Source of the DNA: Bacteroidales bacterium
GTDB lineage: Bacteria; Bacteroidota; Bacteroidia; Bacteroidales; UBA12077
Direction of reading: 5' to 3'
Length of the DNA stretch: 12,911 nt
Assembly (NCBI GenBank): GCA_028282585.1
Contig: JANQHR010000135.1
Span: 1-12,911, forward strand
The notes beneath the pieces are model-generated. The model searched no databases, was not told the origin of the DNA, and saw only the letters and a list, made by a program, of their open reading frames with translations. Made by a program: the position numbers and the translations under genes. Positions 112 to 12,911 of this stretch are shown piece after piece; position 1 is the first letter of the stretch; every line of letters starts with the position of its first letter.

Positions 112-2217
112 TTATTTCGGAGGGTGTATAATGAATTGATCATACAAGTAATTGATTGAATGTGTTTCTCCAATTATAGTGAGAAGATCATTTTCCCGAA
201 GAACGGTATCTCCTTTCGGAGGAAAGGAATGTCTCTTTCGTTCTACAAAAACGATTAACACATCTTTAGGCAATTTTACATCCATTACTTTTTTATTAAT
301 AAAAATAGTTGTAGGTGCATTTTTTGACAAGCGGAATGTTACATGCTGCTTATTGTGCAATAAATACTCAATTATCTTATTTCGGGTATTCAAATTAATG
401 ATATCCTTTACAAAATAATCTCGCTCTACAATATCAATAATACCGGCCAGCATTCGCAGCTGCTGTTTAGGTTTTTGATCTGAATTAACAAGAAAGAAGA
501 ATATTTTTACTTTCTCATTAACAACTTCACCGTTCTTTTTAATTGGTACCGTAATTCCTTTCTCTGAAATACTTATATAAAGCATCGGGTGTGACAGGTT
601 TTTAATCTTTGCATAAAAAAGTGAAACCTCTGGAATAATAATTTGTGATCCGGCAAGATTCTCTTTTAAAAAGTCAGTTTTTAAGTTATTTAAATCTACA
701 CTTACCTGTTTAGAGATGGAGTTTACAGTTTCATTTAGTAAGTTATCAAACTTCTTTTCATATACGAAATTTATCTTAGCACCAATAATGGTCTGGTTAA
801 AGGGGTCATCCTCCCGTAGCCCTTTTTCTCTCAGTATGGTCATAAATTCATTCTCCAATTCATCATACTGGTTCTTACCTAAAAGTGCAAACCAATGAAA
901 TATTGCGCCTTCTCTCTTTACTTTTGACTGAACAAAAAATTTAAACCACAAATAAGACAGGAGTATTATTGCAAAAGTAAAAACAAGTGGTCCCCACCCC
1001 ATGTATAACATTAATGCTATGGCAGATACAATTCCAAATAGTTGCATCCATGGATAAAGGGGAGAATGATAGCCTGGATCATACGATGCTATTTTACTGT
1101 TACGCAGAACAATTACGGATAGATTTATCGCCATAAAAATAAACAGCTGGAACGTGCTTGCAAGTTTTACGATTCCTTCTTCGGATAAGACAACAATAAA
1201 TAAAATGATTAAGACTGCTGTTAGTATAATTGCAGGGACCGGTGTGCCCCAACGACTAATTTTACTAAATTTCTCGGAAAAAAGATGATCTCTCCCCATT
1301 GCCAATGGGTAACGTGAAGTAGCCAACATACCGGCATTTCCAGTAGAAGCAAAAGCAAATAGCGCAGCAATAGTAATAATATATACCCCAGCTTTAGGGG
1401 GCAACAAACTAAATAGTTTCCCTGCCGCCGATGCTGCTGGTGAAAGATCGGAAGCTAACTGTTCACCATCAATTACTGCAACCATGACAAACACACCAAA
1501 AACATAAATCAAGCCTGTAACTAATAGCGACAAAGCCATCCCCAGAGGAATATTTCTTTCTGGCTTTTTAATTTCTTCGGCAACACTTGCTATTTGGGTT
1601 AATCCTAAAAACGAAACAAATACAAACCCGGTTGTGAATATTATACCTTCAATTCCACCTGTAAAAAATGGTAAAAAATCATTTTTGTCGAAATTTAATG
1701 AAGGCTGAGTACCAGCAAAAGTTGTCAATAACCCGTCTAGTATAAAACCACCTAAAACGATCAATAACCCAATAACCAATACTTTTTGTATGCCCGAGGA
1801 TTTTTTAGCTCCAAAAATATTAAGCACAGCAAATAGTATTGCAAAAATTATGGCTGTCTCTTTTAAAGGTATATCCAGGAAAATAGAACTATAAGCCCCA
1901 ATCCCAATTAATGCAAATGCTGTTTTTAATAAAAGTGCTATATATGATCCTATGCCTCCAATTGTTCCCATCATTGGTCCAAAACTACGATCAAGGAAAA
2001 AATAAGCTCCACCGGACCGTGGCAAAGCGGTAGATATTTCGGCAATACTAAACATCGAAGGCATAATGAGAAGTCCTGCAAATAAGTAAGCCAAAATTAC
2101 TGAAGGTCCGGTATATTGTGAAGCGAGTCCGGGCAATAAAAAAAAACCCGAACTAAACATTGCTCCGGTACTAACAGCAAAAACGTCAAATAATCCAAGT
2201 TCTTTTTTGAGTTTCAT
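112..2217 (-). CDS. APC-superfamily amino acid permease with C-terminal PTS EIIA-2-like and TrkA-C (RCK_C) domains
   Basis: 701-aa ORF. N-terminal LKKELGLF...GAMFSSGFFLLPG (APC TM1), LPRSGGAY, AEEIKKPERNIP and SRYPLAMGRD motifs over ~430 hydrophobic aa. The soluble tail contains VKIFFFLV...QQLRMLAGI (EIIA-like) and LPKDVLIVFVER...PKGDTVLRENDLLTIIG (TrkA-C). Confidence 0.9.
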   Translation of the reverse strand: MKLKKELGLFDVFAVSTGAMFSSGFFLLPGLASQYTGPSVILAYLFAGLLIMPSMFSIAEISTALPRSGGAYFFLDRSFGPMMGTIGGIGSYIALLLKTAFALIGIGAYSSIFLDIPLKETAIIFAILFAVLNIFGAKKSSGIQKVLVIGLLIVLGGFILDGLLTTFAGTQPSLNFDKNDFLPFFTGGIEGIIFTTGFVFVSFLGLTQIASVAEEIKKPERNIPLGMALSLLVTGLIYVFGVFVMVAVIDGEQLASDLSPAASAAGKLFSLLPPKAGVYIITIAALFAFASTGNAGMLATSRYPLAMGRDHLFSEKFSKISRWGTPVPAIILTAVLIILFIVVLSEEGIVKLASTFQLFIFMAINLSVIVLRNSKIASYDPGYHSPLYPWMQLFGIVSAIALMLYMGWGPLVFTFAIILLSYLWFKFFVQSKVKREGAIFHWFALLGKNQYDELENEFMTILREKGLREDDPFNQTIIGAKINFVYEKKFDNLLNETVNSISKQVSVDLNNLKTDFLKENLAGSQIIIPEVSLFYAKIKNLSHPMLYISISEKGITVPIKKNGEVVNEKVKIFFFLVNSDQKPKQQLRMLAGIIDIVERDYFVKDIINLNTRNKIIEYLLHNKQHVTFRLSKNAPTTIFINKKVMDVKLPKDVLIVFVERKRHSFPPKGDTVLRENDLLTIIGETHSINYLYDQFIIHPPK

Positions 2218-2416: not shown

Positions 2417-3332
2417 ATGGGTGATTATTCCAGCAACAATGAGTTCAATATTTTAGTTTTGGCAGACTTTACAGCTGGTAGCTGGCAGGCATCAACGTTT
2501 GCAATGCAATTTTTGTATCAGCGAGAATCTTCTTTTTCCATATTGCAAACTTATCAAAAGCCAAATTTTGGATATTTTATGACCCGCAACCTTACTTCTA
2601 AGTTGAAAGAAATCACTTTGTACGAATTAAAAAAATTAAAAGATAAGCTCCTGTCCAACTACCAGATCGGATCAAAATGCATTGAAACAATATCAATAGA
2701 AGGAGAACTTAATTCAGTTTTACGCCACAATTCATTAATCAGTAGCCCTTACAATGTTATCCTGGGTACAAACAGTTCGTTTAAAGATTCCAACACGATA
2801 CAAAACAGATATATCAAAAAGTTAATTGATGCTGCTAAGTTTCCATTTTTTATAGTAACAGGTGAATTCGACAACCTACACAACAAAAAGCTTCTATTTG
2901 TGGGAAACCAGGATAAAAAACCTTCTCCCCGATTAACAAATAAAATCATGCAAATATGTGATGAAACAAATTCTGACCTACAGGTCCTTTTTGTTTTAAA
3001 TAAAAACTCTCCTGAAGTTTCAAATGTAGTTCTGGACTATTATTCCGAAGCTTTTAAAAATATAGAACTAGTGTCGTGTCACGCCTGCTCTGACAGCCCA
3101 AATATTGTTCTTTTGATTTTTGACTGCGTTAAAAAATCTTTATCCGGCAGCTGCCGGACTATGCGCAGATTTTTTGTCTTGTCAAAAACCAAAATAACTT
3201 CAACTTAACCGTCATTTCAGGCATGACATGACACTAGATATAAATCAAACATTTAATTCTTCAAAATACGCTGGTATTGAAAAACACACTCAAAAAAAAC
3301 CCAAAGATTTAATCATTATTGACAACAATTAA
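2417..3332 (+). pseudogene. Universal stress protein-like gene interrupted near its 3' end by a 166-bp insertion (current ORF 2417..3208 has a foreign C-terminus)
   Basis: N-terminal NILVLADFT (USP beta1). Removing 3072-3237 joins ...FKNIEL to DINQTFNSSKYAGIEKHTQKKPKDLIIIDNN* (stop 3330-3332), giving a 249-aa protein with a USP-like GI...DLIII segment. Confidence 0.75.
3068..3237. mobile_element. MITE-like fold-back element, 170 bp including both CTAG ends
   Basis: Terminal inverted repeats 3068-3087 and 3218-3237 (18/20), CTAG at both ends, nested internal inverted repeats and a perfect central palindrome TCCGGCAGCTGCCGGA (3143-3158). Excision restores the host ORF. Confidence 0.9.
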
Positions 3333-3366
3333 TTGGTGTGGCTAAAAACTGATTTACAATTTAATA

Positions 3367-4359
3367 ATGAAACAAAAACATTTAAATAATATACTTGTTC
3401 CTATTGTCTCGTCTTCTGATATTGAATTAGTTCTGAAGCAGGCAACCTACTTTCATAATATCTACAATTCAACAATAACTATTATGATGGTAGTACCTGG
3501 AATATCTTTTTTTAAGCGGGCACTCTACCAATATCAAAATACAAATCTTATCAAAAAACATGATGCATTTACCAAAGTTACCCTGAGCATTGGTGCTTTT
3601 TATTGCAATAATATACCAGACTTTATTCATATTAAGATTGTTGAAGGGAAATTTATAAAAGAAATAAAGAATGAATTGAAGCGTAAAAAGTACGATTTAC
3701 TGCTACTGAAAGAATTCAGCGAAGTAAGGGACTTATTGGACAAACTGCAGGCTATGTCAGACAAAATTATGTCCCGGATTGATTGCCCGGTTATGATTTT
3801 GCATGAAAAATGGACTGAAAATGGAATTAATGAAATTCTTATCCCCATTGATATAACCAGTAAGTGTAAAGACACACTATTCTGGGCTGCCCGCCATTCA
3901 AAAACCATAGGTGCCCGAATAAATTTTGTTTCAGTAATAAATTCATCTATTAATGTTTTTAATAGCTTAACATATAAAAGATCGCAACTCATCAAAGAAT
4001 GGATTGAAAATCAAGGTTTAGATTGCCACATAACAATACTGAAAGCATCTCCCGGTAAAATGGCTGACAAACTCATTAAATTCGCAGATAAAGGTAGTTC
4101 GGACCTGATCATGATTTTAACCCACAAAGAATATATAGCATCCCATAACCATTTAGGGAAATTTGCAAAAAAACTTATCCATAATTCGATCAAACCTGTA
4201 ATTAGTATGAGCATATACAATAAACCTATGTTTAAACTCATTGAAGATTATAATCAATACAGTCAGAAGCGTATTGAAACTTTAAATATTAAACACTATG
4301 AATTAGAAGATTTTTTGAAAATCAAACATCCAACTAATAAACTCTCAATACACTTATGA
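3367..4359 (+). CDS. Universal stress protein, tandem USP domains
   Basis: 330 aa. NNILVPIV, YDLLLL, IDCPVMIL, INEILIPIDIT, SDLIMILTH and KPVISM match a two-domain Bacteroidota USP layout. Confidence 0.85.
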   Translation: MKQKHLNNILVPIVSSSDIELVLKQATYFHNIYNSTITIMMVVPGISFFKRALYQYQNTNLIKKHDAFTKVTLSIGAFYCNNIPDFIHIKIVEGKFIKEIKNELKRKKYDLLLLKEFSEVRDLLDKLQAMSDKIMSRIDCPVMILHEKWTENGINEILIPIDITSKCKDTLFWAARHSKTIGARINFVSVINSSINVFNSLTYKRSQLIKEWIENQGLDCHITILKASPGKMADKLIKFADKGSSDLIMILTHKEYIASHNHLGKFAKKLIHNSIKPVISMSIYNKPMFKLIEDYNQYSQKRIETLNIKHYELEDFLKIKHPTNKLSIHL

Positions 4360-5225
4360 CCACAAAAAAGAATTGTATATTGGCCTTTGTCCAACCTGGT
4401 AAGTATGGAGAACAGGTATTGAAAGAAGCTTTGTTCTTTCAGCAAAATTTTGGACTTCGTTTAGTCGTATTAAATGTTATAAAATCGTTTACATTTTTTG
4501 AAAAAACAATCGGCAACAAAGACGAGGAAAATTTAATAACTGAAGCCAAAGATGAACTAATTGAGTTTGTTAAATCCAATATAAAAACTGAAATTCTTAA
4601 CGACATAACGATTTCAGTACAACCCGGCGATATTGAGTCTGTTTTAACCCGGGAAACAAATACCGGGAAATATGAATTTATTTTAATCGATAAAAGTAGA
4701 TGTGAAGAAGAAGGCCAGCCCTGTAAAAAACAGATTGATAAAATTGTAAGTGAATCAAGGTGCCCTGTTTTAACAGTTCACAAAGATGTTGGTGTTCCCG
4801 AAATCAAAAATATTGTTATCCCTATTGATATTACCCAATCAACAAAAAAAAGGCTTTTGTGGGCCAGTTTATTTGCAAAAAAATTCGATGCCAGGGTTTC
4901 CATTTTGTCTGTACTTAACACCAACATAAATGTGAGAAATAGCCTGGCTTATAAAAATGCAAATACCATAAAACATTTGTTATGGGAGCAAGGTATTGAT
5001 TGTGACGTTAAAGTCCTTGGTACTTTTGGGCAGGAAAAACACGAAGTTATATTAAACCATATTGAAAAGGAAAACCCACAATTGGTATTGATCAGGACAC
5101 ACCAGGAATCACTTTTAGCGAATTCAGGTATCGGAAAATTTGTATCTGAAATTGTACATGGATGCAAAGTTCCTGTATTCTCTGTAAACTATACACCCGA
5201 CCCTTTAAATTCATTCTTTTTGTAA
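4356..5225 (+). CDS. Universal stress protein, tandem USP domains (paralog of the upstream gene)
   Basis: 289 aa. SRCPVLTV, IKNIVIPIDIT, QLVLIRTH and IVHGCKVPVFSV. ATGA overlap with the previous stop suggests translational coupling. Confidence 0.88.
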   Translation: MTTKKNCILAFVQPGKYGEQVLKEALFFQQNFGLRLVVLNVIKSFTFFEKTIGNKDEENLITEAKDELIEFVKSNIKTEILNDITISVQPGDIESVLTRETNTGKYEFILIDKSRCEEEGQPCKKQIDKIVSESRCPVLTVHKDVGVPEIKNIVIPIDITQSTKKRLLWASLFAKKFDARVSILSVLNTNINVRNSLAYKNANTIKHLLWEQGIDCDVKVLGTFGQEKHEVILNHIEKENPQLVLIRTHQESLLANSGIGKFVSEIVHGCKVPVFSVNYTPDPLNSFFL

Positions 5226-5260
5226 TTACATAAAGAATAAAACGATGGCAGATAAGATTA

Positions 5261-5412
5261 GGTATGAAACAAGGAAGTGTATGTGCATCAGGCATAGCCG
5301 GTATTGGAGCCGGACATACTATTTTGGGTAAAACAATGATACAGCAGTATTTCCTGAATTATATGCGATTATTGCAATTGCAGCAACATTTTTAATTAGC
5401 ATGAGTTTGTAA
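5261..5412 (+). pseudogene. ntpK: C-terminal remnant of V-type ATP synthase subunit K (proteolipid), with one frameshift
   Basis: Translates as GMKQGSVCASGIAGIGAGHTILGKTMI, a 1-nt deletion at ~5342, then AVFPELYAIIAIAATFLISMSL*. This matches the Bacteroidota subunit K C-terminus as I recall it (RQGQVCANGIAAIGQGH...TLILAVFPELYAIVALAATFLI). Not in the ORF track. Confidence 0.85.
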
Positions 5413-5464
5413 ACTTTGTTAGCTTAACAATAGTTTGATTAGTTTTTATCATTGGTTTAATTAA

Positions 5465-5492
5465 GCAATCCCGTTGGAAACAGCGGGGTTGC
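5465..5492 (+). terminator. Probable intrinsic terminator hairpin
   Basis: 12-bp stem GCAATCCCGTTG / CAGCGGGGTTGC with two G-U pairs on the + strand and a GAAA tetraloop. The U-tract (ATTTC) is weak. Confidence 0.65.
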
Positions 5493-5551
5493 ATTTCAAA
5501 ATTATTAAGATCACATGTTATTGACTATTTTTACTTAAGAATTTAAAAACG

Positions 5552-6787
5552 GTGCGACTATTTAAATTGAAAATACAACGAAAGATATTATTGGTAATTG
5601 TAAGTTTTACAATTATTGCCTGTGCCGGATTAATTTATTCAGCTATAAAGAGTTTGAAATTAGATGATGATCACCTTGCACTTATCGAAAAATCTAAAAA
5701 CCTGGATATTGAAATATCACACAGCAGAATCTTTTTAGACGACTACTTTCTTTTTAATGATACGTTGAAAAAAAACTCAATTTTAAATAGTTTCAAAAAA
5801 GCTGAGGGCTATATCAATTCTCTTGACTCCTTTATCGTAAATAAATACCAGGTTAAAGCAAAATCCAATCTTTCAAATTCAGTATCCCACGTTAGTTATC
5901 ATGTGAAACAACTAAAAGAAAAAGTCATTTTAAGTTTAAACGGCAACAAGCAATCCATGGATATGGTTATCCTGGATAATTATAATGACTTTCAGAATGC
6001 GTATCAAAAGCTTGATAAAAATATTCATGATTACATTTTAAAAGAGAATAAAAAATTTAAAAAAGGTATTTTCGGTTTGGTGTTCCTTATTTTCTTTTTG
6101 CTGATATTAAGTCTGATTTTAGTCTATGGGCTCATAAATGCCTACAATGCAGTAGAGAAAAAACAGGCTATAAAAACAATCGAAGTTGAATATAAAGAAC
6201 GTAAACGAATTGCAGCTGATCTTCATGATGGTTTGGGCTCTATCCTTTCAAGCATCGCTTTATTTGTTAAGCTGGTTGAAAAAGACAGCACCGATGAAGC
6301 AATTAATAATAACCTTGTCAAAGTAAAAGAATTATCTGCCATAGCTCTTGAGAACCTTGAAGCAGCCATAAATAACCTTAACCCTTCTATTCTGAACAAA
6401 TATGGTTTGATAAAATCACTTGAAATTATTTGTGAAAAAATAAATGATACAGGAAAGGTCTTTTGCAGGGTTATCGCACAAAACAGGGAATTGAATTGTG
6501 ACTCAAATATTCAGATTAATTTGTACCGAATATGTAATGAACTAATAAACAATACACTTAAACATTCAGGCGCAACAGAATTATCTATAGATATTCAGAA
6601 AATAAAAAGAACTGTCAATTTAGTTTATAAAGACAATGGAAGCGGGTTTAACCCCGACTTAATTTATTCTTCGGATGATGAGAAAATGGGTTTGCGAAAT
6701 ATGATTAACCGAATTGAATCAATTGGTGGAAAGTATTATATAAATAACAAGAAAGGTGTTGATATAAGACTTTCGTTGAAAGTTTAA
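5552..6787 (+). CDS. Membrane sensor histidine kinase, HisKA_3 (NarX/DesK-type)
   Basis: GTG start, two TM segments flanking a ~140-aa extracytoplasmic region, H-box ERKRIAADLHDGLG, N-box ELINNTLKHS, G1 DNGSGF and G2 MGLRNM. Confidence 0.92.
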   Translation: MRLFKLKIQRKILLVIVSFTIIACAGLIYSAIKSLKLDDDHLALIEKSKNLDIEISHSRIFLDDYFLFNDTLKKNSILNSFKKAEGYINSLDSFIVNKYQVKAKSNLSNSVSHVSYHVKQLKEKVILSLNGNKQSMDMVILDNYNDFQNAYQKLDKNIHDYILKENKKFKKGIFGLVFLIFFLLILSLILVYGLINAYNAVEKKQAIKTIEVEYKERKRIAADLHDGLGSILSSIALFVKLVEKDSTDEAINNNLVKVKELSAIALENLEAAINNLNPSILNKYGLIKSLEIICEKINDTGKVFCRVIAQNRELNCDSNIQINLYRICNELINNTLKHSGATELSIDIQKIKRTVNLVYKDNGSGFNPDLIYSSDDEKMGLRNMINRIESIGGKYYINNKKGVDIRLSLKV

Positions 6788-6800
6788 AATAGATTGAAAA

Positions 6801-7463
6801 ATGGAAAATGGAAATACAAAAATAGTTATTGTTGATGACCATAAGATTTTCAGGGATGGCCTGATGCTTCTGTTGGATAAATTTGATTTTGCCTCTGTAG
6901 TTGGTGAAGCATCTAATGGGGAGGAATTTTTGGAGCTGATTGGAAAAGAATTGCCCGAGATTGTTCTTATGGATATCAACATGCCAAAAATGAATGGGAT
7001 TGAGGCTTCCAGGCTAGCCCTTCAAAAATATCCAGCTATAAAAATTATCGCACTTACCAGTTTTGCTGATGATGAATACATTGAGCAAATGATTTCTGCG
7101 GGTGTAGAAGGGTATATGCTAAAACGATCTGATATAGAAGATTTTGAAAAAGCAATAAAACGAGTAGCTGAAGGTGGAAGTTATTTTTCAGAAGAGATAA
7201 TAAAAGTAATTACAAGAAACTTATATAAAAACAAGGAGCATAGATCTGTAACTGACCAGTATACAAGTTTTACCGAAAGGGAGAAACAAATCCTGCAGCT
7301 AATTTGCAACGGCTTAAATAATGATCAAATAGCTGAGAAAGTGTTTTTAAGTACAAAAACAGTTGAAAAACACAAAAGCAGTTTGTTCCAAAAAACAGGT
7401 ACGTTTAATACAGTTAATTTAGTAATCTATGCTTTTAAAAACCAACTTGTTTCCTTTGATTAG
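6801..7463 (+). CDS. NarL/FixJ-family response regulator (REC + LuxR-type HTH)
   Basis: IVIVDDH, VLMDINMPKMNG (phosphoacceptor Asp), GYMLK and FTEREKQILQLICNGLNNDQIAEKVFLSTKTVEKHK. Starts 13 nt after the kinase stop. Confidence 0.95.
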   Translation: MENGNTKIVIVDDHKIFRDGLMLLLDKFDFASVVGEASNGEEFLELIGKELPEIVLMDINMPKMNGIEASRLALQKYPAIKIIALTSFADDEYIEQMISAGVEGYMLKRSDIEDFEKAIKRVAEGGSYFSEEIIKVITRNLYKNKEHRSVTDQYTSFTEREKQILQLICNGLNNDQIAEKVFLSTKTVEKHKSSLFQKTGTFNTVNLVIYAFKNQLVSFD

Positions 7464-7607
7464 AAGCAATAGTTAACCTATCAACAACTAATCTTTTCTA
7501 AAACCTAAAAAACTTTGAACGATTGGATTAGTAATTCTGTTTTAGTTGCTAATTGTTAAAATCATACTTTTAAAATGAGTAATAATAATGTAAGAATTTA
7601 GTACAGA

Positions 7608-7913
7608 ATGGTTGAAAAAATATTTATCACTCCTTTTCAGAAGTTTGCTAAAATGGAAAGCTTGAGCGGCATATTATTATTTGCAGCAACTATCATAGCT
7701 TTTATTTGGGCTAATTCCCCGTTTCAGGATGCATATCATGCGCTATGGCAATATAGGGTTGGGTTTATTAGCGAAAATTTCACTTTAAATAAACCACTTA
7801 TTTTATGGATTAATGATGGCTTAATGGCTATTTTCTTTTTTTTAATTGGCCTGGAATTAAAATTTCTTTTATTGAAACTTACAGGTGGAAAACAAATAAA
7901 CAAAACGAACTAA
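7608..7913 (+). pseudogene. nhaA: Truncated Na+/H+ antiporter NhaA (N-terminal ~85 aa only)
   Basis: ESLSGILLF...WANSP and WINDGLMAIFFFLIGLELK are NhaA signatures. The expected KRE continuation is absent and the ORF ends at 101 aa, versus roughly 390-450 aa for intact NhaA. Confidence 0.9.
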
Positions 7914-7948
7914 TTATTAGTTACTAATAGAATTTCAATAAATTGTCA

Positions 7949-9025
7949 ATGAAAGATCTAAAAACAACAAACATTTTATTACTGATAATAGTTATTCCTT
8001 TGGTTTTTTACCTTCTGAAAATTCTATCATTTATTTTCATTCCGCTGGTATTATCAATGTTCATTTCGTTGCTTTTTCTTCCTTTAATGAGGTGGTTGAA
8101 GAAAAAAGGAATTCCCAGGATAATTAGTATTATCATTGTTGTTGCAATAATCTTTGGAGGTTTAAAACTGGGTGGGGAACTGGTTCAGTTATCAAGCAAT
8201 GAGATTGTGACAGCAGCCAAAGATGGAGAATTTTTTAAAAATGCAGAACAAAAAATACTTGGTTTAATCGTAACAATTGAAAACTTTTTTGGAATTGAAC
8301 GATTGCAGGGAGAAAATGTATTTAAACATTATTTTCAGGAAAATAACTCTTTTGAGCAATTTGGTAATACGATTGACTTTATTACAAACATGCTTACGAT
8401 GACACTAATGACTGCATTTTTTGTAATATTACTATTATCAGGTTCAATAGATTTTCAAAAAATTTTAAACGGTACTCTTTTCAAAATAAAGCACTCTTCT
8501 ACAAAAACTTTCATGAGAATTGAAAAAGACATCGCTAAGTTTGTAAAGGTAAAATTTCTTATTAGCCTGGCTACAGGTATTGGTTTTAGTCTTGCATGCA
8601 TGCTTTTTGATGTGAGCTTTCCAATATTTTGGGGATTGCTTGCTTTTGTTATCAACTTTGTACAAATGATTGGTTCTGTAATCTCTGTAGTTTTACTTTC
8701 TTTGTTTGCGTTTGTTGAGCTTGACCCAAGCGGAACACTCTTATTTTTCATACTCACAATAACAGCTATACAAGTATTAATGGGAGGAATTCTGGAGCCT
8801 GTTTTTATGGGAAAAACATTTTCACTAAATGTAATCACTGTTTTAATCATGCTAATGTTATGGGGTTATATTTGGAACATTCCCGGCCTAATAATGTCTA
8901 TACCAATTACCGTTTTTATAAAGATTATTTTAGAGCAGTATCCAAAAACAAAGGTAATTGCTGACCTAATGGCAGGTTCAGAAGTTCAACTAAATTTTAA
9001 AAGAAAAACAGGTTTAAAAAAATAA
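7949..9025 (+). CDS. AI-2E family transporter (PerM/TqsA, UPF0118)
   Basis: Hydrophobic ~358-aa ORF (ATG at 7949 preferred over TTG at 7943). FWGLLAFVINFVQMIGS, LEPVFMGKTFSLN and WGYIWNIPGLIMSIPIT motifs. Confidence 0.9.
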   Translation: MKDLKTTNILLLIIVIPLVFYLLKILSFIFIPLVLSMFISLLFLPLMRWLKKKGIPRIISIIIVVAIIFGGLKLGGELVQLSSNEIVTAAKDGEFFKNAEQKILGLIVTIENFFGIERLQGENVFKHYFQENNSFEQFGNTIDFITNMLTMTLMTAFFVILLLSGSIDFQKILNGTLFKIKHSSTKTFMRIEKDIAKFVKVKFLISLATGIGFSLACMLFDVSFPIFWGLLAFVINFVQMIGSVISVVLLSLFAFVELDPSGTLLFFILTITAIQVLMGGILEPVFMGKTFSLNVITVLIMLMLWGYIWNIPGLIMSIPITVFIKIILEQYPKTKVIADLMAGSEVQLNFKRKTGLKK

Positions 9026-9075
9026 ATTATGAATTGTACGCCTAAAAAATCGTACAAACTTAAGATACAAAATAT

Positions 9076-10608
9076 ATGGCAACTAAAACAAAACCATCTG
9101 TAACACAACGTTTCCTAAATATCATTGAACGTGGAGGAAATGCTTTACCACATCCTGCAACCCTGTTTCTGCTTATGGCAGTAGCAACATTAGCAATCTC
9201 ATTATTAGGACATTTATTAAATTGGGAAGTCATTCATCCTGCAACAAAAGAATTAGTTACTACAAAAAATCTTTTGTCGGCAGATGGCTTGCATTTCATT
9301 CTTGAAGAAACAGTCAGGAATTTTACAGATTTTGCACCACTTGGTATTGTTTTAGTAGCTATGCTGGGCATAGGTATTGCCGAAAGTAGTGGTTTAATTG
9401 CAGTAGTTATACGCTTGCTGGTTTTAAAAGCCCCTAAAAACATGTTAACTTTTGTTTTGGTGTTTGCAGGTATACTCTCAAATATGGCAAGCGATATTGG
9501 CTATGTGCTCCTTATACCCATGGCAGGCGTAATTTTCATAGCTGTTGGCCGTCATCCAATTGTAGGAATGGCTGCTGCCTTTGCTGGTGTTTCAGGAGGG
9601 TTCAGCGCTAATCTTTTTTTGGGCACAATTGACCCGCTACTGGCTGGTTTATCACAGGAAGCAGCTCAAATTATTGATCCAAATTATACTGTCAACCCCA
9701 CGGCAAACTATTATTTCATGATTATCTCAACATTTATGATATCATTGATAGGTACATGGATAACTGAAAAAATTATTGCCCCTCGTTTTGGGAATTATAA
9801 TAGTGAACCTGGCGAAAATGAAAAGCTGGAGTCTTTAACTAAAAGTGAAAAAAAAGGTTTGCTAAATGCTTCCCTTGTTTTTTTAGGCTTCATGGTCCTA
9901 TTACTGATTGGTTCAATTCCAGAGAATGGTATTTTGCGGGACGTTAATGGTTCGTTGTTACACTCACCTTTATTGAAAGGCGTAGTTACCTTACTTTTTT
10001 TAATAGCAGGAGCAATGGGAATCGTTTATGGTCTTACTGTTGGCAAATTTAAAAACGACAGTGACGTCATGAACGGCATGGCTGAAAATATGAAAACCCT
10101 GGCCACATACATGGTATTGGTTTTTTTTGCTGCACAATTCGTCGCATACTTTAAAGTGAGTAACCTTGGAATAATTTTAGCTGTTAATGGAGCCGAAGCT
10201 CTGAAAGAAGCTAACCTGAACATTTACATCTTAATGATACTTTTTATTCTTTTTGCAGCAATGATTAATATGTTAATGGGAAGTGCTTCTGCAAAATGGG
10301 CCATACTCGCTCCCATATTTATCCCCATTTTCATGCTCATGGGTTATTCCCCCGAATTGTCCCAGGCCGTTTTCAGAATTGGCGATAGTGTAACAAACAT
10401 TATTTCTCCAATGATGAGCTTTTTCGCGCTTATCATTGCTTTTTTTCAGAAATATGATAAAAAAGCTGGAATTGGAACAATTATTTCAACAATGTTGCCC
10501 TATTCTATTTTATTCTTTATTGCATGGACCGTACTGCTTATTTTATGGATTTATTTCAAAATTCCTCTGGGGCCCGATTCCCCTCTTTTTTATGAAATTA
10601 ATAATTGA
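9076..10608 (+). CDS. abgT: AbgT family transporter (p-aminobenzoyl-glutamate / YdaH-MtrF family)
   Basis: FLNIIERGGNALPHP, NFTDFAPLG, GRHPIVG..AAFAGVSGGFSAN, GSASAKW and RIGDSVTNIISP are AbgT hallmarks. Confidence 0.95.
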   Translation: MATKTKPSVTQRFLNIIERGGNALPHPATLFLLMAVATLAISLLGHLLNWEVIHPATKELVTTKNLLSADGLHFILEETVRNFTDFAPLGIVLVAMLGIGIAESSGLIAVVIRLLVLKAPKNMLTFVLVFAGILSNMASDIGYVLLIPMAGVIFIAVGRHPIVGMAAAFAGVSGGFSANLFLGTIDPLLAGLSQEAAQIIDPNYTVNPTANYYFMIISTFMISLIGTWITEKIIAPRFGNYNSEPGENEKLESLTKSEKKGLLNASLVFLGFMVLLLIGSIPENGILRDVNGSLLHSPLLKGVVTLLFLIAGAMGIVYGLTVGKFKNDSDVMNGMAENMKTLATYMVLVFFAAQFVAYFKVSNLGIILAVNGAEALKEANLNIYILMILFILFAAMINMLMGSASAKWAILAPIFIPIFMLMGYSPELSQAVFRIGDSVTNIISPMMSFFALIIAFFQKYDKKAGIGTIISTMLPYSILFFIAWTVLLILWIYFKIPLGPDSPLFYEINN

Positions 10609-10748
10609 CCATTAAAATCTTCTTTGAAATTATTTTAACATCAAATTATGTAATAATATCAACTGCATTTAGGGATGTACAAAATGAGAGGCCAATTTTA
10701 ATCTATGGTAATGCAAGTTGCTTTAAAAACCAAGACTAAGATCGCTAT

Positions 10749-10861
10749 TTGCTTTTGAAAAATACAATTAATACTTCAAAATTACCTTTGAAAAATATTA
10801 TAAAACAGAAATATTTCCTTTGAAAAATTGATATATTTCCATAATATTGCTTTTGATTTAA
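10749..10861 (+). repeat. Four phased direct repeats TTNCYTTTGAAAAAT at 32-33-bp period upstream of the ATPase
   Basis: Units start at 10749, 10782, 10814 and 10847 (the last diverges after TTTGA). A weaker copy lies at 10718. Confidence 0.7.
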
Positions 10862-10894
10862 ATAAATAGTTACACCTATTTTATATTAACAAAG

Positions 10895-12208
10895 ATGTAT
10901 TTAAAGCGAAATATAGATAAGGAATTAAATAATTGGAAAGAGGAAGTAGAACGAAAACCACTACTAGTTAGAGGGGCAAGGCAAGTTGGCAAGTCTTCAT
11001 CAATAAGGAAACTAGGGGAAAGTTTTGATTCTTTTCTGGAAATTAACTTTGAAGAACACAAAAAGGTTCATTCTCTATTTGAAGGAGATCTGACCCCGCA
11101 AATCTTATGTGAGAACCTGTCTATCATGTTCGATATGGAAATCATTGAAGGAAAGACCTTACTTTTTTTTGATGAGATCCAGGCTTGCCTTCCTGCAATT
11201 TCATCTTTACGCTTTTTTTATGAAAAGATGCCCCGGTTACATGTTGTAGCTGCTGGTTCATTATTAGAATTTGCACTTGCAGAAATTCCTTCATTTGGTG
11301 TAGGAAGGATACGATTCCTTTATATGTACCCATTGTCTTTTGACGAATTTCTTTTAGGAATAGGACAAATGAAGCTTCTGGAAATTAAAAGGAAAGCAAG
11401 TGCACAAAATCCCTTATCAGTGCCGATTCACGAGAGATTATTAGATCTGCTTAAGAAGTTTCTAATTATTGGTGGAATGCCGGAGGTAGTAGAAAAATAT
11501 GTAACTCAAAATGATTTAAGGGGATGTCAAAGGATATTAGATGATCTAATAAGCTCTTTTCGAACGGATTTTACAAAATATAAGAACAAAGTACCTTCAT
11601 CACGCATTAGGGAAGTTTTTGAATCGGTTGTTCATCAGGCTGGTGGAAAATTTGTATATAAAAAAGCATCTCAAAATTTGAATACTATGCAGATAAAGGA
11701 GGCTCTTGAATTACTAATTATGGCAGGACTTGTTGTTCCGGTAACCCATACATCAGCAAATGGTATTCCGATGGGGGCAGAAGTTAACCCTAAAAAACGG
11801 AAAATGCTTTTGATAGACACTGGTATTTTCCAGCGCTTAATGCAACTTGACATTTCCGAATTACTTTTCAGTAATGAATTTAATTTGGTTAACAAGGGAG
11901 GGATTGCAGAACAGTTTATTGGGTTGGAAATATTAAAGAATACATCCTGCTACAATCAAACAGAATTATTTTATTGGCACCGGGAAGCGCTAAACAGCAA
12001 TGCTGAAGTTGATTATTTAATCCAGAAAAGTAATGACATCCTCCCTATTGAAGTCAAATCTGGCTCGAAAGGATCCATGAATAGTATGTTTTTATTTTTA
12101 AAAGAAAAAAAGGCAAAATATGGGTGCCGGCTATCTTTGGAAAATTTTGCTGAATATGAAAATATTAACGTTTATCCGCTATATGCTTTTTCAAATATCC
12201 TGAATTAA
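10895..12208 (+). CDS. AAA+ ATPase (AAA_14) with C-terminal DUF4143
   Basis: 437 aa. Walker A GARQVGKS, Walker B LLFFDEIQ, GSLL, MYPLSFDEFL, GGMPE and C-terminal FYWH...EVDY...PIEVKSG. Confidence 0.92.
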   Translation: MYLKRNIDKELNNWKEEVERKPLLVRGARQVGKSSSIRKLGESFDSFLEINFEEHKKVHSLFEGDLTPQILCENLSIMFDMEIIEGKTLLFFDEIQACLPAISSLRFFYEKMPRLHVVAAGSLLEFALAEIPSFGVGRIRFLYMYPLSFDEFLLGIGQMKLLEIKRKASAQNPLSVPIHERLLDLLKKFLIIGGMPEVVEKYVTQNDLRGCQRILDDLISSFRTDFTKYKNKVPSSRIREVFESVVHQAGGKFVYKKASQNLNTMQIKEALELLIMAGLVVPVTHTSANGIPMGAEVNPKKRKMLLIDTGIFQRLMQLDISELLFSNEFNLVNKGGIAEQFIGLEILKNTSCYNQTELFYWHREALNSNAEVDYLIQKSNDILPIEVKSGSKGSMNSMFLFLKEKKAKYGCRLSLENFAEYENINVYPLYAFSNILN

Positions 12209-12239
12209 TGCGACAAAACCGAACTTCATCCAATAGATA

Positions 12240-12816
12240 TTACAAATCAAATAATCGATTTAAATGTCGTTCATAGATATTTTCTTTAACACATTCTCCA
12301 ACCCCATCGGAATATTTTTAAAGCATATGGATGTAACCATCTCCCATTTCTGCTGCGATTTTATAAGCAACATGAATTAACTGCCTGAAATTGCGGTTAT
12401 AACCTGGGTGGTCGGGAATATGTCGAAGCGTATTTGCAAATTTCTTTCCTGTCCATTTTTCCACTTCCTCAACAGTAGGTAATTGTTCTCGTTTAATATC
12501 AATAACTGTTGCATAAGGGTCTGATAATTCTTTATTTTTTGATAATGCCTCAGAAATATATCTTTTTGGCAAGCATTAAAGACTCATCACTTGCCAGCGA
12601 AAGACCAATTACTTCCTCTAACCAAGTCGTTCCCGCAGTTTTTATATGAATACCTTTATCATGTTTTTTAATCAATTCACCCATAATTGGATAAATACTA
12701 AATTTATCACTGCCCGAATGAATACTCAGCTTCAGGTTTGCAGGTAAACCAAATTCTTTCATTGCAAAATCAACAACAAGTAAACCTTGTTCAAACTCTG
12801 TTTTAAAAAGATCTAG
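12240..12816 (-). pseudogene. uxaE: Tagaturonate/fructuronate epimerase 3' portion, with insertion, frameshift and nonsense codon
   Basis: LKLSIHSGSDKFSIY, HIKTAGTTWLEE, PYATVIDI, FRQLIHVAYK and ENIYERHL match UxaE. +1 frameshift at ~12554-12556, premature TAA at 12318-12320, natural stop at 12240-12242. Homology ends at CTAG 12813-12816. Confidence 0.88.
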
Positions 12817-12911
12817 TGCTTCAATTCATAAATCCGAACCTTATTTTCATCTCCCTTTTTCCTTTCTGCTTCGTTAAAAAATCGTTTATCCGGCAGCTGC
12901 CGGACTATGCG
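12813..12911. mobile_element. Left half of a second MITE-like fold-back element, cut by the window end
   Basis: Starts CTAGTG. 12872-12911 is identical to 3127-3165 apart from one extra G and includes the palindrome TCCGGCAGCTGCCGGA (12889-12904). It interrupts uxaE. Confidence 0.8.

Follow-up and report, generated by a model that had tools for sequence, protein, structure and literature searches.

RUP of Streptococcus pneumoniae is a 107-bp element with 9-bp terminal inverted repeats (TIRs), and a single insertion sequence (IS), IS630-Spn1, is described as the supplier of its ends (PMC2229807). Correia elements (NEMIS) of Neisseria are described in the same source as foldback MITEs (miniature transposable elements with inverted repeats) of 100–155 bp, with terminal TA and an internal functional site for integration host factor (PMC2229807). 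In IS630-family elements TA is duplicated and the transposase binds the TIRs, as set out in PMC2170065. Repetitive extragenic palindromic (REP) sequences of the GTAG families are reported in Proteobacteria, Cyanobacteria, Chloroflexi and the PVC superphylum, a list that leaves out Bacteroidetes (PMC3733652). The window analysed here, meaning the whole stretch of 12,911 bp from a Bacteroidales bacterium, is one contig (C21) of the metagenome-assembled genome (MAG) G000, an assembly of 173 contigs, 4.89 Mb and 31.9% GC whose smallest contigs are about 1.5 kb. It holds two related foldback elements, called copy 1 (type 1) and copy 2 (type 2), which interrupt two different genes. The reading that fits best is that of two foldback MITE subfamilies of the IS630 type, in which one inner module is combined with two sets of IS ends.

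Two gene-interrupting elements with one invariant centre

Both copies started with CTAGTG and had in common the stretch CGTTAAAAAATC[G]TTTATCCGGCAGCTGCCGGACTATGCG, which amounts to 39 identical bases and one 1-nt indel. An exact 27-mer found twice within 12.9 kb is far beyond chance, and the 14-mer CCGGCAGCTGCCGG occurred at two places only in the whole G000 assembly, namely in these copies. Measured from the left end, the centre of the palindrome at the foldback apex lay at 83 nt (copy 1) and 84 nt (copy 2); the right arms of the two types measured 87/89 nt. A preliminary description of the window had reported the common bases, the near-equal left distances and the interruption of a gene by each copy; all of this was borne out. 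Because the window is an entire contig, copy 2 is truncated 15 nt beyond the palindrome centre. Three MITE copies were examined: copy 1, the left 99 nt of copy 2, and a full type-2 copy on a contig (L003) of another MAG.

Copy 1 reads CTAGTGTCGTGTCACGCCTG...CAGGCATGACATGACACTAG (3068–3237), and the element proper is 162–166 nt long, according to whether TA or CTAG is taken as the duplication unit. When positions 3068–3233 (166 bp) were removed in silico and one CTAG was kept, the open reading frame (ORF) at 2417 gained 31 codons and encoded a product of 248 aa. The N-terminal 217 residues of this ORF have homologues of 248–251 aa (12 matches, E ≤ 1e-5). The excised 248-aa product aligned to the last residue (...NIELDINQ...KDLIIIDNN, compared with ...EIELSINQ...RDLIIIDSK in a homologue), and the unexcised reading departed from the homologues at the element junction. 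Compared with its tandem Usp paralogues, the restored protein gave an E value of 0.11. Copy 1 is a genuine insertion in a conserved gene.

Copy 2 begins with CTAGTGCTTCAATTC... at 12813 and lies in uxaE. In a tblastn search with two UxaE orthologues, homology ended at 12807, adjoining the CTAG. A 1,087-nt contig of run X3 matched 12300–12816 with five substitutions and two indels and then continued, after the CTAG, with 27 nt that do not belong to the element. Their manual minus-strand translation is NKGVDYISN, in frame with LDLFKTEFEQ, and the orthologues have FNKGVDY(R/V)GD. The X3 contig is an uninterrupted uxaE allele, i.e., an empty site with a single CTAG, and copy 2 is a genuine insertion in uxaE. 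In the window the uxaE remnant is also frameshifted (12540–12575); the X3 contig lacks one base at 12554 and by hand reading would join both frames, so the frameshift is either strain-specific or a consensus error.

L003 is a 3,226-bp contig whose flanks are only about 72% identical to G000. It carries the entire type-2 element of 173 bp, with 97% identity to copy 2 over the visible 99 nt. After the core the element continues with ...CTATGCGCAGATTTTTCGCC..., which was likewise present 3' of the core in a variant contig of run X1. Its right arm is complementary to the left arm and ends with ...CACTTATTTATAAATTGAACCACTAG, including the terminal CTAG. The preliminary description had predicted such an arm with a terminal CTAG, ending in ...TTATGAATTGAAGCACTAG at about 170 bp; the arm exists in L003, where the right end is ...TTATAAATTGAACCACTAG at 173 bp. 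This type-2 copy (1560–1810, minus strand) sits in a decayed ISL3-type transposase gene. The matching 3' end of ISL3 is present in G000 three times or more (C136:23750-23892, C38:1-250 and C47:1-76), in two cases at a contig start.

The column-by-column identity between copy 1 and the L003 element changed sharply along their length: CTAGTG agreed in 6/6 columns, the outer left arm in 7/36, the inner left arm in 11/17, the centre in 48/49, the inner right arm in 11/19, the outer right arm in 12/40, and CACTAG in 6/6. The earlier statement that the left arms are dissimilar therefore holds for their outer part, but not for the inner part next to the core. Of the 15 differences within the 85-column shared block, one fell among its 49 central columns (hypergeometric P about 1e-5; the boundaries were picked post hoc). 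Types 1 and 2 differ over the outer ~43 nt of each arm, and the IS-derived parts of copy 1 (3068–3110 and about 3205–3237) stop where the shared 84-nt block starts.

Copy 1 formed a whole-length DNA hairpin of −35.4 kcal/mol (z = −7.5), and none of 200 shuffles was as good. The corresponding value for L003 was −21.5 kcal/mol (z = −2.8), reached by two of 200 shuffles. In the alignment of copy 1, L003 and copy 2, 94% of cells were paired and both sides had changed in 18 of 55 pairs, compared with 0–2 double-sided changes in a control in which the partner was slid by 1–3 columns. Twelve of the 18 changes belong to the TIR helix, which is paired by the very definition of a TIR, and five lie in the inner arms. 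The pairing and the double-sided changes indicate that the shared geometry is real. These results support the earlier proposal of one family of CTAG-landing mobile foldback hairpins with the same core and geometry and different arms.

The elements were highly abundant in the coral-associated community. Four coral-metagenome runs showed summed contig depths of 5.6–15 over uxaE and of 30–1078 over 12804–12911, where depth is the sum over all organisms in a run and not a copy number. In run X1, the element depth was 20–70 times that of the flank. At least 10 contigs from the four runs had differing left flanks, and all of them parted at 12813. Further arm variants joined the core at 12872/12874; an example is ...TTTTGAATTTTGGACTA joined to CGTTAAAA, which is type-1-like.

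The positions of the elements, their parts and the interrupted genes are collected in Table 1. Elsewhere in the window (7608–7913), a 101-aa ORF matched only positions 2–75 of the 374-position profile of the Na+/H+ antiporter NhaA family, and it is probably a truncated gene.

Table 1. Elements, element parts and interrupted genes in the 12,911-bp window.
Feature	Position	Strand	Remarks
Copy 1, type 1 MITE	3068..3237		170 nt including both flanking CTAG; excision restores gene; whole-length foldback
Copy 1, left arm	3068..3110	+	20-nt TIR at 3068–3087 and subterminal stretch homologous to left ends of IS630-family ISs
Inner module common to types 1 and 2	3111..3194		84 nt, 87% identical to L003 element 45–127
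Invariant centre	3127..3174		48 nt; copy 1 equals the full type-2 copy except for one 1-nt indel; 48/49 columns
Perfect 16-bp palindrome TCCGGCAGCTGCCGGA	3143..3158		foldback apex; terminator-like on minus strand
Copy 1, right arm	3205..3237	+	homologous to right ends of IS630-family ISs; TIR at 3218–3237
Gene interrupted by copy 1, 5' part	2417..3071	+	conserved 248-aa protein, function unassigned
Gene interrupted by copy 1, 3' part	3234..3329	+	...LDINQTFNSSKYAGIEKHTQKKPKDLIIIDNN, then stop
Copy 2, type 2 MITE	12813..12911		left 99 nt only, contig end; TIR at 12813–12832, invariant centre from 12872, palindrome at 12889–12904
uxaE (tagaturonate epimerase), 3' part interrupted by copy 2	12246..12816	-	Pfam UxaE 9.1e-16; frameshift near 12554

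IS630-type ends and the proposed origin

A BLAST search with copy 1 in 401 genomes of the phylum gave weak matches that gathered on the last 28–33 nt (query 138–170 or 143–170). The matched segments were the termini of ~1.2-kb elements ending in ...TGACATGACACTAG, in many cases where a contig stops. The terminal 18 nt of copy 1, together with about 33 subterminal nt on the right and about 45 nt on the left, were homologous to the ends of IS630-family ISs, and 17 of the 18 terminal nt matched L080. On the left side, the arm is comparable to CTAGTGTCACGTCACGCA...GAACAATAT in L075/L077, and the similarity extended inward to ...GAACAATAT... On the right side, it extended to the last transposase codons (...CCGTCATTT(C/T)AG...); the IS right ends that match copy 1 hold the last codons of the transposase (...LYPS.. 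and stop). The L077 element encodes a 150-aa helix-turn-helix (HTH) protein (HTH_32, 1.3e-15) and a 220-aa DDE_3 protein (6.5e-30) in two frames, which is the usual IS630-family layout. One IS copy, L092, ends in CACTAC, as expected if TA and not CTAG is duplicated and the following G belongs to the target. IS630 reportedly prefers CTAG, and the references of PMC2170065 include a 1991 paper by Tenzen and Ohtsubo with 'TA in the 5'-CTAG-3' sequence' in its title. CTAG stood at the visible flank or flanks in all three MITE copies.

The homology of its ends to those of IS630-family ISs identifies copy 1 as an IS630-type MITE, and type 2 resembles type 1 in target, first bases (TA-GTG), size and fold. 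The features of MITEs were also seen otherwise: lengths of 170 and 173 bp, no coding capacity, presence/absence polymorphism (the empty X3 allele) and multiple copies, of which only two are assembled in G000.

By our estimate, the probability is about 0.75 that copies 1 and 2 are non-autonomous foldback MITEs of the IS630/Tc1-mariner type, with one inner module, two sets of IS ends and a core that is a passenger. Elements of about 166–169 bp would insert at the TA of CTAG sites and would be moved in trans by a presumed IS630-family DDE transposase through the ~20-nt TIRs. The outer ~43 nt of each arm would be IS ends, as seen for type 1; for type 2 the parent IS was not found in the genomes named below. 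The inner 84 nt would form a common foldback module, with the central 48 nt invariant and the 16-bp GC palindrome at the apex. The two types may have arisen when the ends of two different ISs became attached to one inner module, for instance through a template switch while an excision gap was repaired. The core would then be carried along and conserved for a reason other than recognition by the transposase. Because its palindrome is found again in many unrelated hairpins, the core may be a hairpin that the host recognises or that forms a structure. The preliminary description had named a common core between different IS ends as its alternative, and this alternative gave the better fit.

Several observations weigh against this reading. 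No IS with type-2 ends was found in the 401 phylum genomes, G000, G061 or the plasmids, and the weak type-2 BLAST matches in the phylum genomes were AT-rich or coding chance matches. The sole assembled DDE_3 transposase gene of G000 (contig C88) has unrelated TIRs. G000 contained no L077-like transposase, and G061 contained neither an L077-like transposase nor any DDE_3 gene, so that no resident enzyme came to light for either type in these two assemblies, which are draft MAGs, where ISs often stay unassembled. Those ISs that have type-1 ends come from other families within the phylum. The MITE copies are only three, and their duplicated unit could be TA or CTAG. In addition, an invariant 48-nt centre between arms of ~60% identity would not be expected of a neutral stuffer, and the core may have some role in mobility.

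The C88 contig (L130, 1,619 bp) itself carries an IS630-family IS at about 282–1423, with an HTH ORF at 332–832 and a DDE_3 match at 894–1301. Its TIRs are about CCAAGTTTAKTWATAARTTGG and TA-flanked, and the DDE part is seemingly split between frames.

The palindrome outside the elements and the rival explanations

The 27-mer core, with up to three mismatches, was present in 0 of 60 other, related genomes. The viral contigs searched gave no matches, and the plasmids searched gave none for the copy-1 or the copy-2 element. Rfam families covered neither element nor core, whether gathering thresholds were applied or E values up to 1 were allowed. A full-text literature search for the above 14-mer returned no match; the supplementary tables of PMC3733652 on REP families and intragenic REPs might list the palindrome.

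The first rival reading concerns the palindrome alone, which would be a small REP-like unit that spreads by itself into hairpin apices or replaces them, the MITE centre would be one hairpin of this kind among others, and the MITE types would have acquired or kept it separately from their ends. We consider this possible, though on balance unlikely. The exact 16-mer was found at 27 sites in 10 of the 81 genomes of family f65, compared with 0 for the reversed control. A 20-mer with up to two mismatches gave about 45 matches in 22 of the 401 phylum genomes, compared with one for the reversed control, and the exact 20-mer was found at 66 loci of metagenome contigs in about 17 unrelated flank contexts. 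Some of the metagenome matches lie in GC-rich coding DNA and may be due to chance. The pooled loci gave 87 palindrome sites in 47 flank families.

The hosts of these sites are varied, which agrees with a unit that spreads alone. Helix P12 of the RNase P RNA is formed by the 16-mer in two genomes, G484 and G530; in G484 the same 16-mer also forms the P18 hairpin, and G530 has UCCCGACUUGUCGGGA at P18. The palindrome also lies within a group II intron (L031), inside an IS256-type transposase gene (L021), in a tRNA-like sequence (L043) and in intergenic hairpins adjoining tRNA genes. In the tRNA-like case, the anticodon loop and the 3' strand of the anticodon stem (13 nt) of a partial tRNA copy are replaced by TATCCGGCAGCTGCCGGA.

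The two RNase P RNA loci, L184 (G484:C6, 1362–1798) and L187 (G530:C43, 1235–1652), are of class A and scored 260 and 258 bits. At L043 (4179–4300), the tRNA gene itself is intact, and a partial copy of the gene's 5' half comes after it. About 40 soil metagenome loci (L005-L069, GC about 55%) make up a repeat family centred on the same 20-mer. It has two left-arm and two right-arm types, with all four combinations present, and its partial units L006 and L012 have the left half of the palindrome only. A weak Acido-Lenti-1 match (26 bits, gathering score 37) in L067 lay beside the core of soil family B and not on the core.

Pairs with and without the palindrome are also consistent with independent spread of the unit. 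In one X1 contig, 10 other nt take the position of the 16-mer while the flanks are the same, and L059/L036 contain tandem units that have it as well as tandem units that lack it. The flanks of a site paired better with each other (duplex energy −7.6 kcal/mol) than with those of other sites (−5.9 kcal/mol), and 21 of 5000 permutations reached the observed mean. A cruder flank test on the whole minimum free energy was, however, not significant (503/2000). A precedent exists in Anabaena variabilis, where REP dimers are described at the centre of long palindromes (PMC3733652).

Other findings do not favour such a REP-like unit. REP families that accompany a REP-associated tyrosine transposase (RAYT) gene have tens to hundreds of extragenic copies per genome, with copies flanking that gene, whereas only 1–9 palindrome sites were counted per genome, and no enzyme was linked to them. 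REP units carry a GTAG (or CGTC) tag next to a short palindrome, and GTAG did not appear general here: TAG stood directly 5' of the palindrome in 12 of the 47 flank families, a count that includes a metagenome subset biased for TAG by a search pattern with fixed 'AG' 5' of the palindrome, and in 3 of the 24 unbiased families; the window has ATAG. We are more doubtful still about the wider claim that TCCGGCAGCTGCCGGA, in many cases next to TA or TAG, acts as a tiny self-spreading hairpin cassette that replaces the apices of pre-existing hairpins in Bacteroidota and other phyla. If it is true, the replaced apices would be those of MITE centres, helices P12 and P18 of RNase P RNA, a group II intron, the anticodon arm of a tRNA-like sequence and terminator-like hairpins between genes, and the 'one core, many arms' pattern of the window would be one local case of a wider process.

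It is very improbable that mobilisation acts through the centre, with an HUH/Y1 enzyme or another hairpin-binding enzyme that reads the central hairpin and a fixed arm length while the ends are free. The invariant centre between differing arms, the equal arm lengths on both sides and the occurrence of the palindrome in 47 flank families would all suit such an enzyme, and in one genome (G301:C100) a palindrome lies ~65–80 nt upstream of a Y1_Tnp gene. However, 20-nt TIRs with target duplication are hallmarks of DDE cut-and-paste transposition, and the type-1 ends are IS630 ends. HUH elements of the IS200/IS605 type are not known to have TIRs or to make a target duplication, and they carry subterminal hairpins at each end; the present elements have 20-nt TIRs, CTAG at both ends and the conserved hairpin in the centre. 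The suggestion of the preliminary description that the core, and not the ends, is read by the mobilising enzyme was thus not supported. Co-occurrence with an HUH nuclease, which it had proposed to check and which was lightly tested, amounted to the single G301 adjacency; the other ~16 of about 17 palindrome sites in four other genomes had no Y1_Tnp gene beside them. Other hairpins flank the four Y1_Tnp genes of G000. Two of these genes were inspected, and nothing core-like (up to three mismatches) was present within 330 nt of either. Likewise, the 66 ORFs around 23 metagenome palindrome sites contained no recurrent gene family and no Y1_Tnp.

The Y1_Tnp loci, among them C9:3844-4188 and C116:72112-72450 of G000 (L170, L178), carry small Y1 (IS200/RAYT-like) transposase genes. 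They are flanked by arrays of differing short hairpins (GGGCTAAAGCCC, CCGTTGGCTTTAGCCGACGG, CCCCAGCCTTAAGGCTGGGG and others), which look like a REP-like hairpin repertoire in this phylum.

That copy 2 is an assembly artefact, whether from a chimaeric junction in the palindrome or because the repeat ended the contig, is hardly credible: the contig does end just beyond the palindrome centre, and neither the right half of copy 2 nor the 5' part of uxaE (N-terminal 245–288 residues, tblastn) was found elsewhere in the G000 assembly, but the independent MAG has the full, 97% identical element, contigs of four runs cover 12813–12896/12911, and a 446-nt contig of run X1 (12396–12841) runs from uxaE into the element. 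The idea that a perfect palindrome had ended the contig at k = 31 was rejected, as the palindrome is perfect over 16 nt only.

Comparison with known systems

IS630-type MITEs at CTAG are ordinary. What is unusual in the present elements is an exchange of ends around a middle that does not vary over 48 nt. This inverted conservation is unlike that of a stuffer and offers a direct test of whether the interior of a MITE matters. The presence of the palindrome at the apex in 47 unrelated flank contexts, including two helices of one RNase P RNA, points to a sequence-specific hairpin reader or to copying of hairpin tips. The elements also disrupt genes and fragment MAG assemblies in a coral-associated community. 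The puzzle that remains of interest is the reason for the invariant centre and for the wide recurrence of the palindrome.

The GTAG-15 REPs of Anabaena variabilis resemble the present elements in that a short GC-rich palindrome centres a longer AT-rich TATAGG...CCTATA palindrome (PMC3733652), and GTAG stands beside the window-type palindrome in several contexts. They differ as described there, since the palindrome here is a single unit and not a dimer, has a low copy number and shows no regular link to a RAYT gene.

With IS630 and ISY100 (Tc1-mariner) the comparison rests on TA duplication and on HTH and DDE transposases that bind the TIRs (PMC2170065), and the ISs that match copy 1 are alike in this. 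The window elements differ from them because they encode nothing and their middle is not IS-derived.

RUP is similar in being short and non-coding, with IS630-family-like TIRs, insertion at TA and presumed mobilisation in trans (PMC2229807). It is also described as lying often in IS transposase genes (PMC2229807), as the L003 copy does here. Compared with RUP as presented in that source, the window elements have two sets of ends around one invariant core, and a resident partner IS was not found.

Correia elements (NEMIS) share the foldback structure, the TA termini and the division into subtypes, which in their case differ by an internal segment (PMC2229807). Correia subtypes accordingly have common TIRs and a variable middle in that account (PMC2229807), and the window elements show the reverse.

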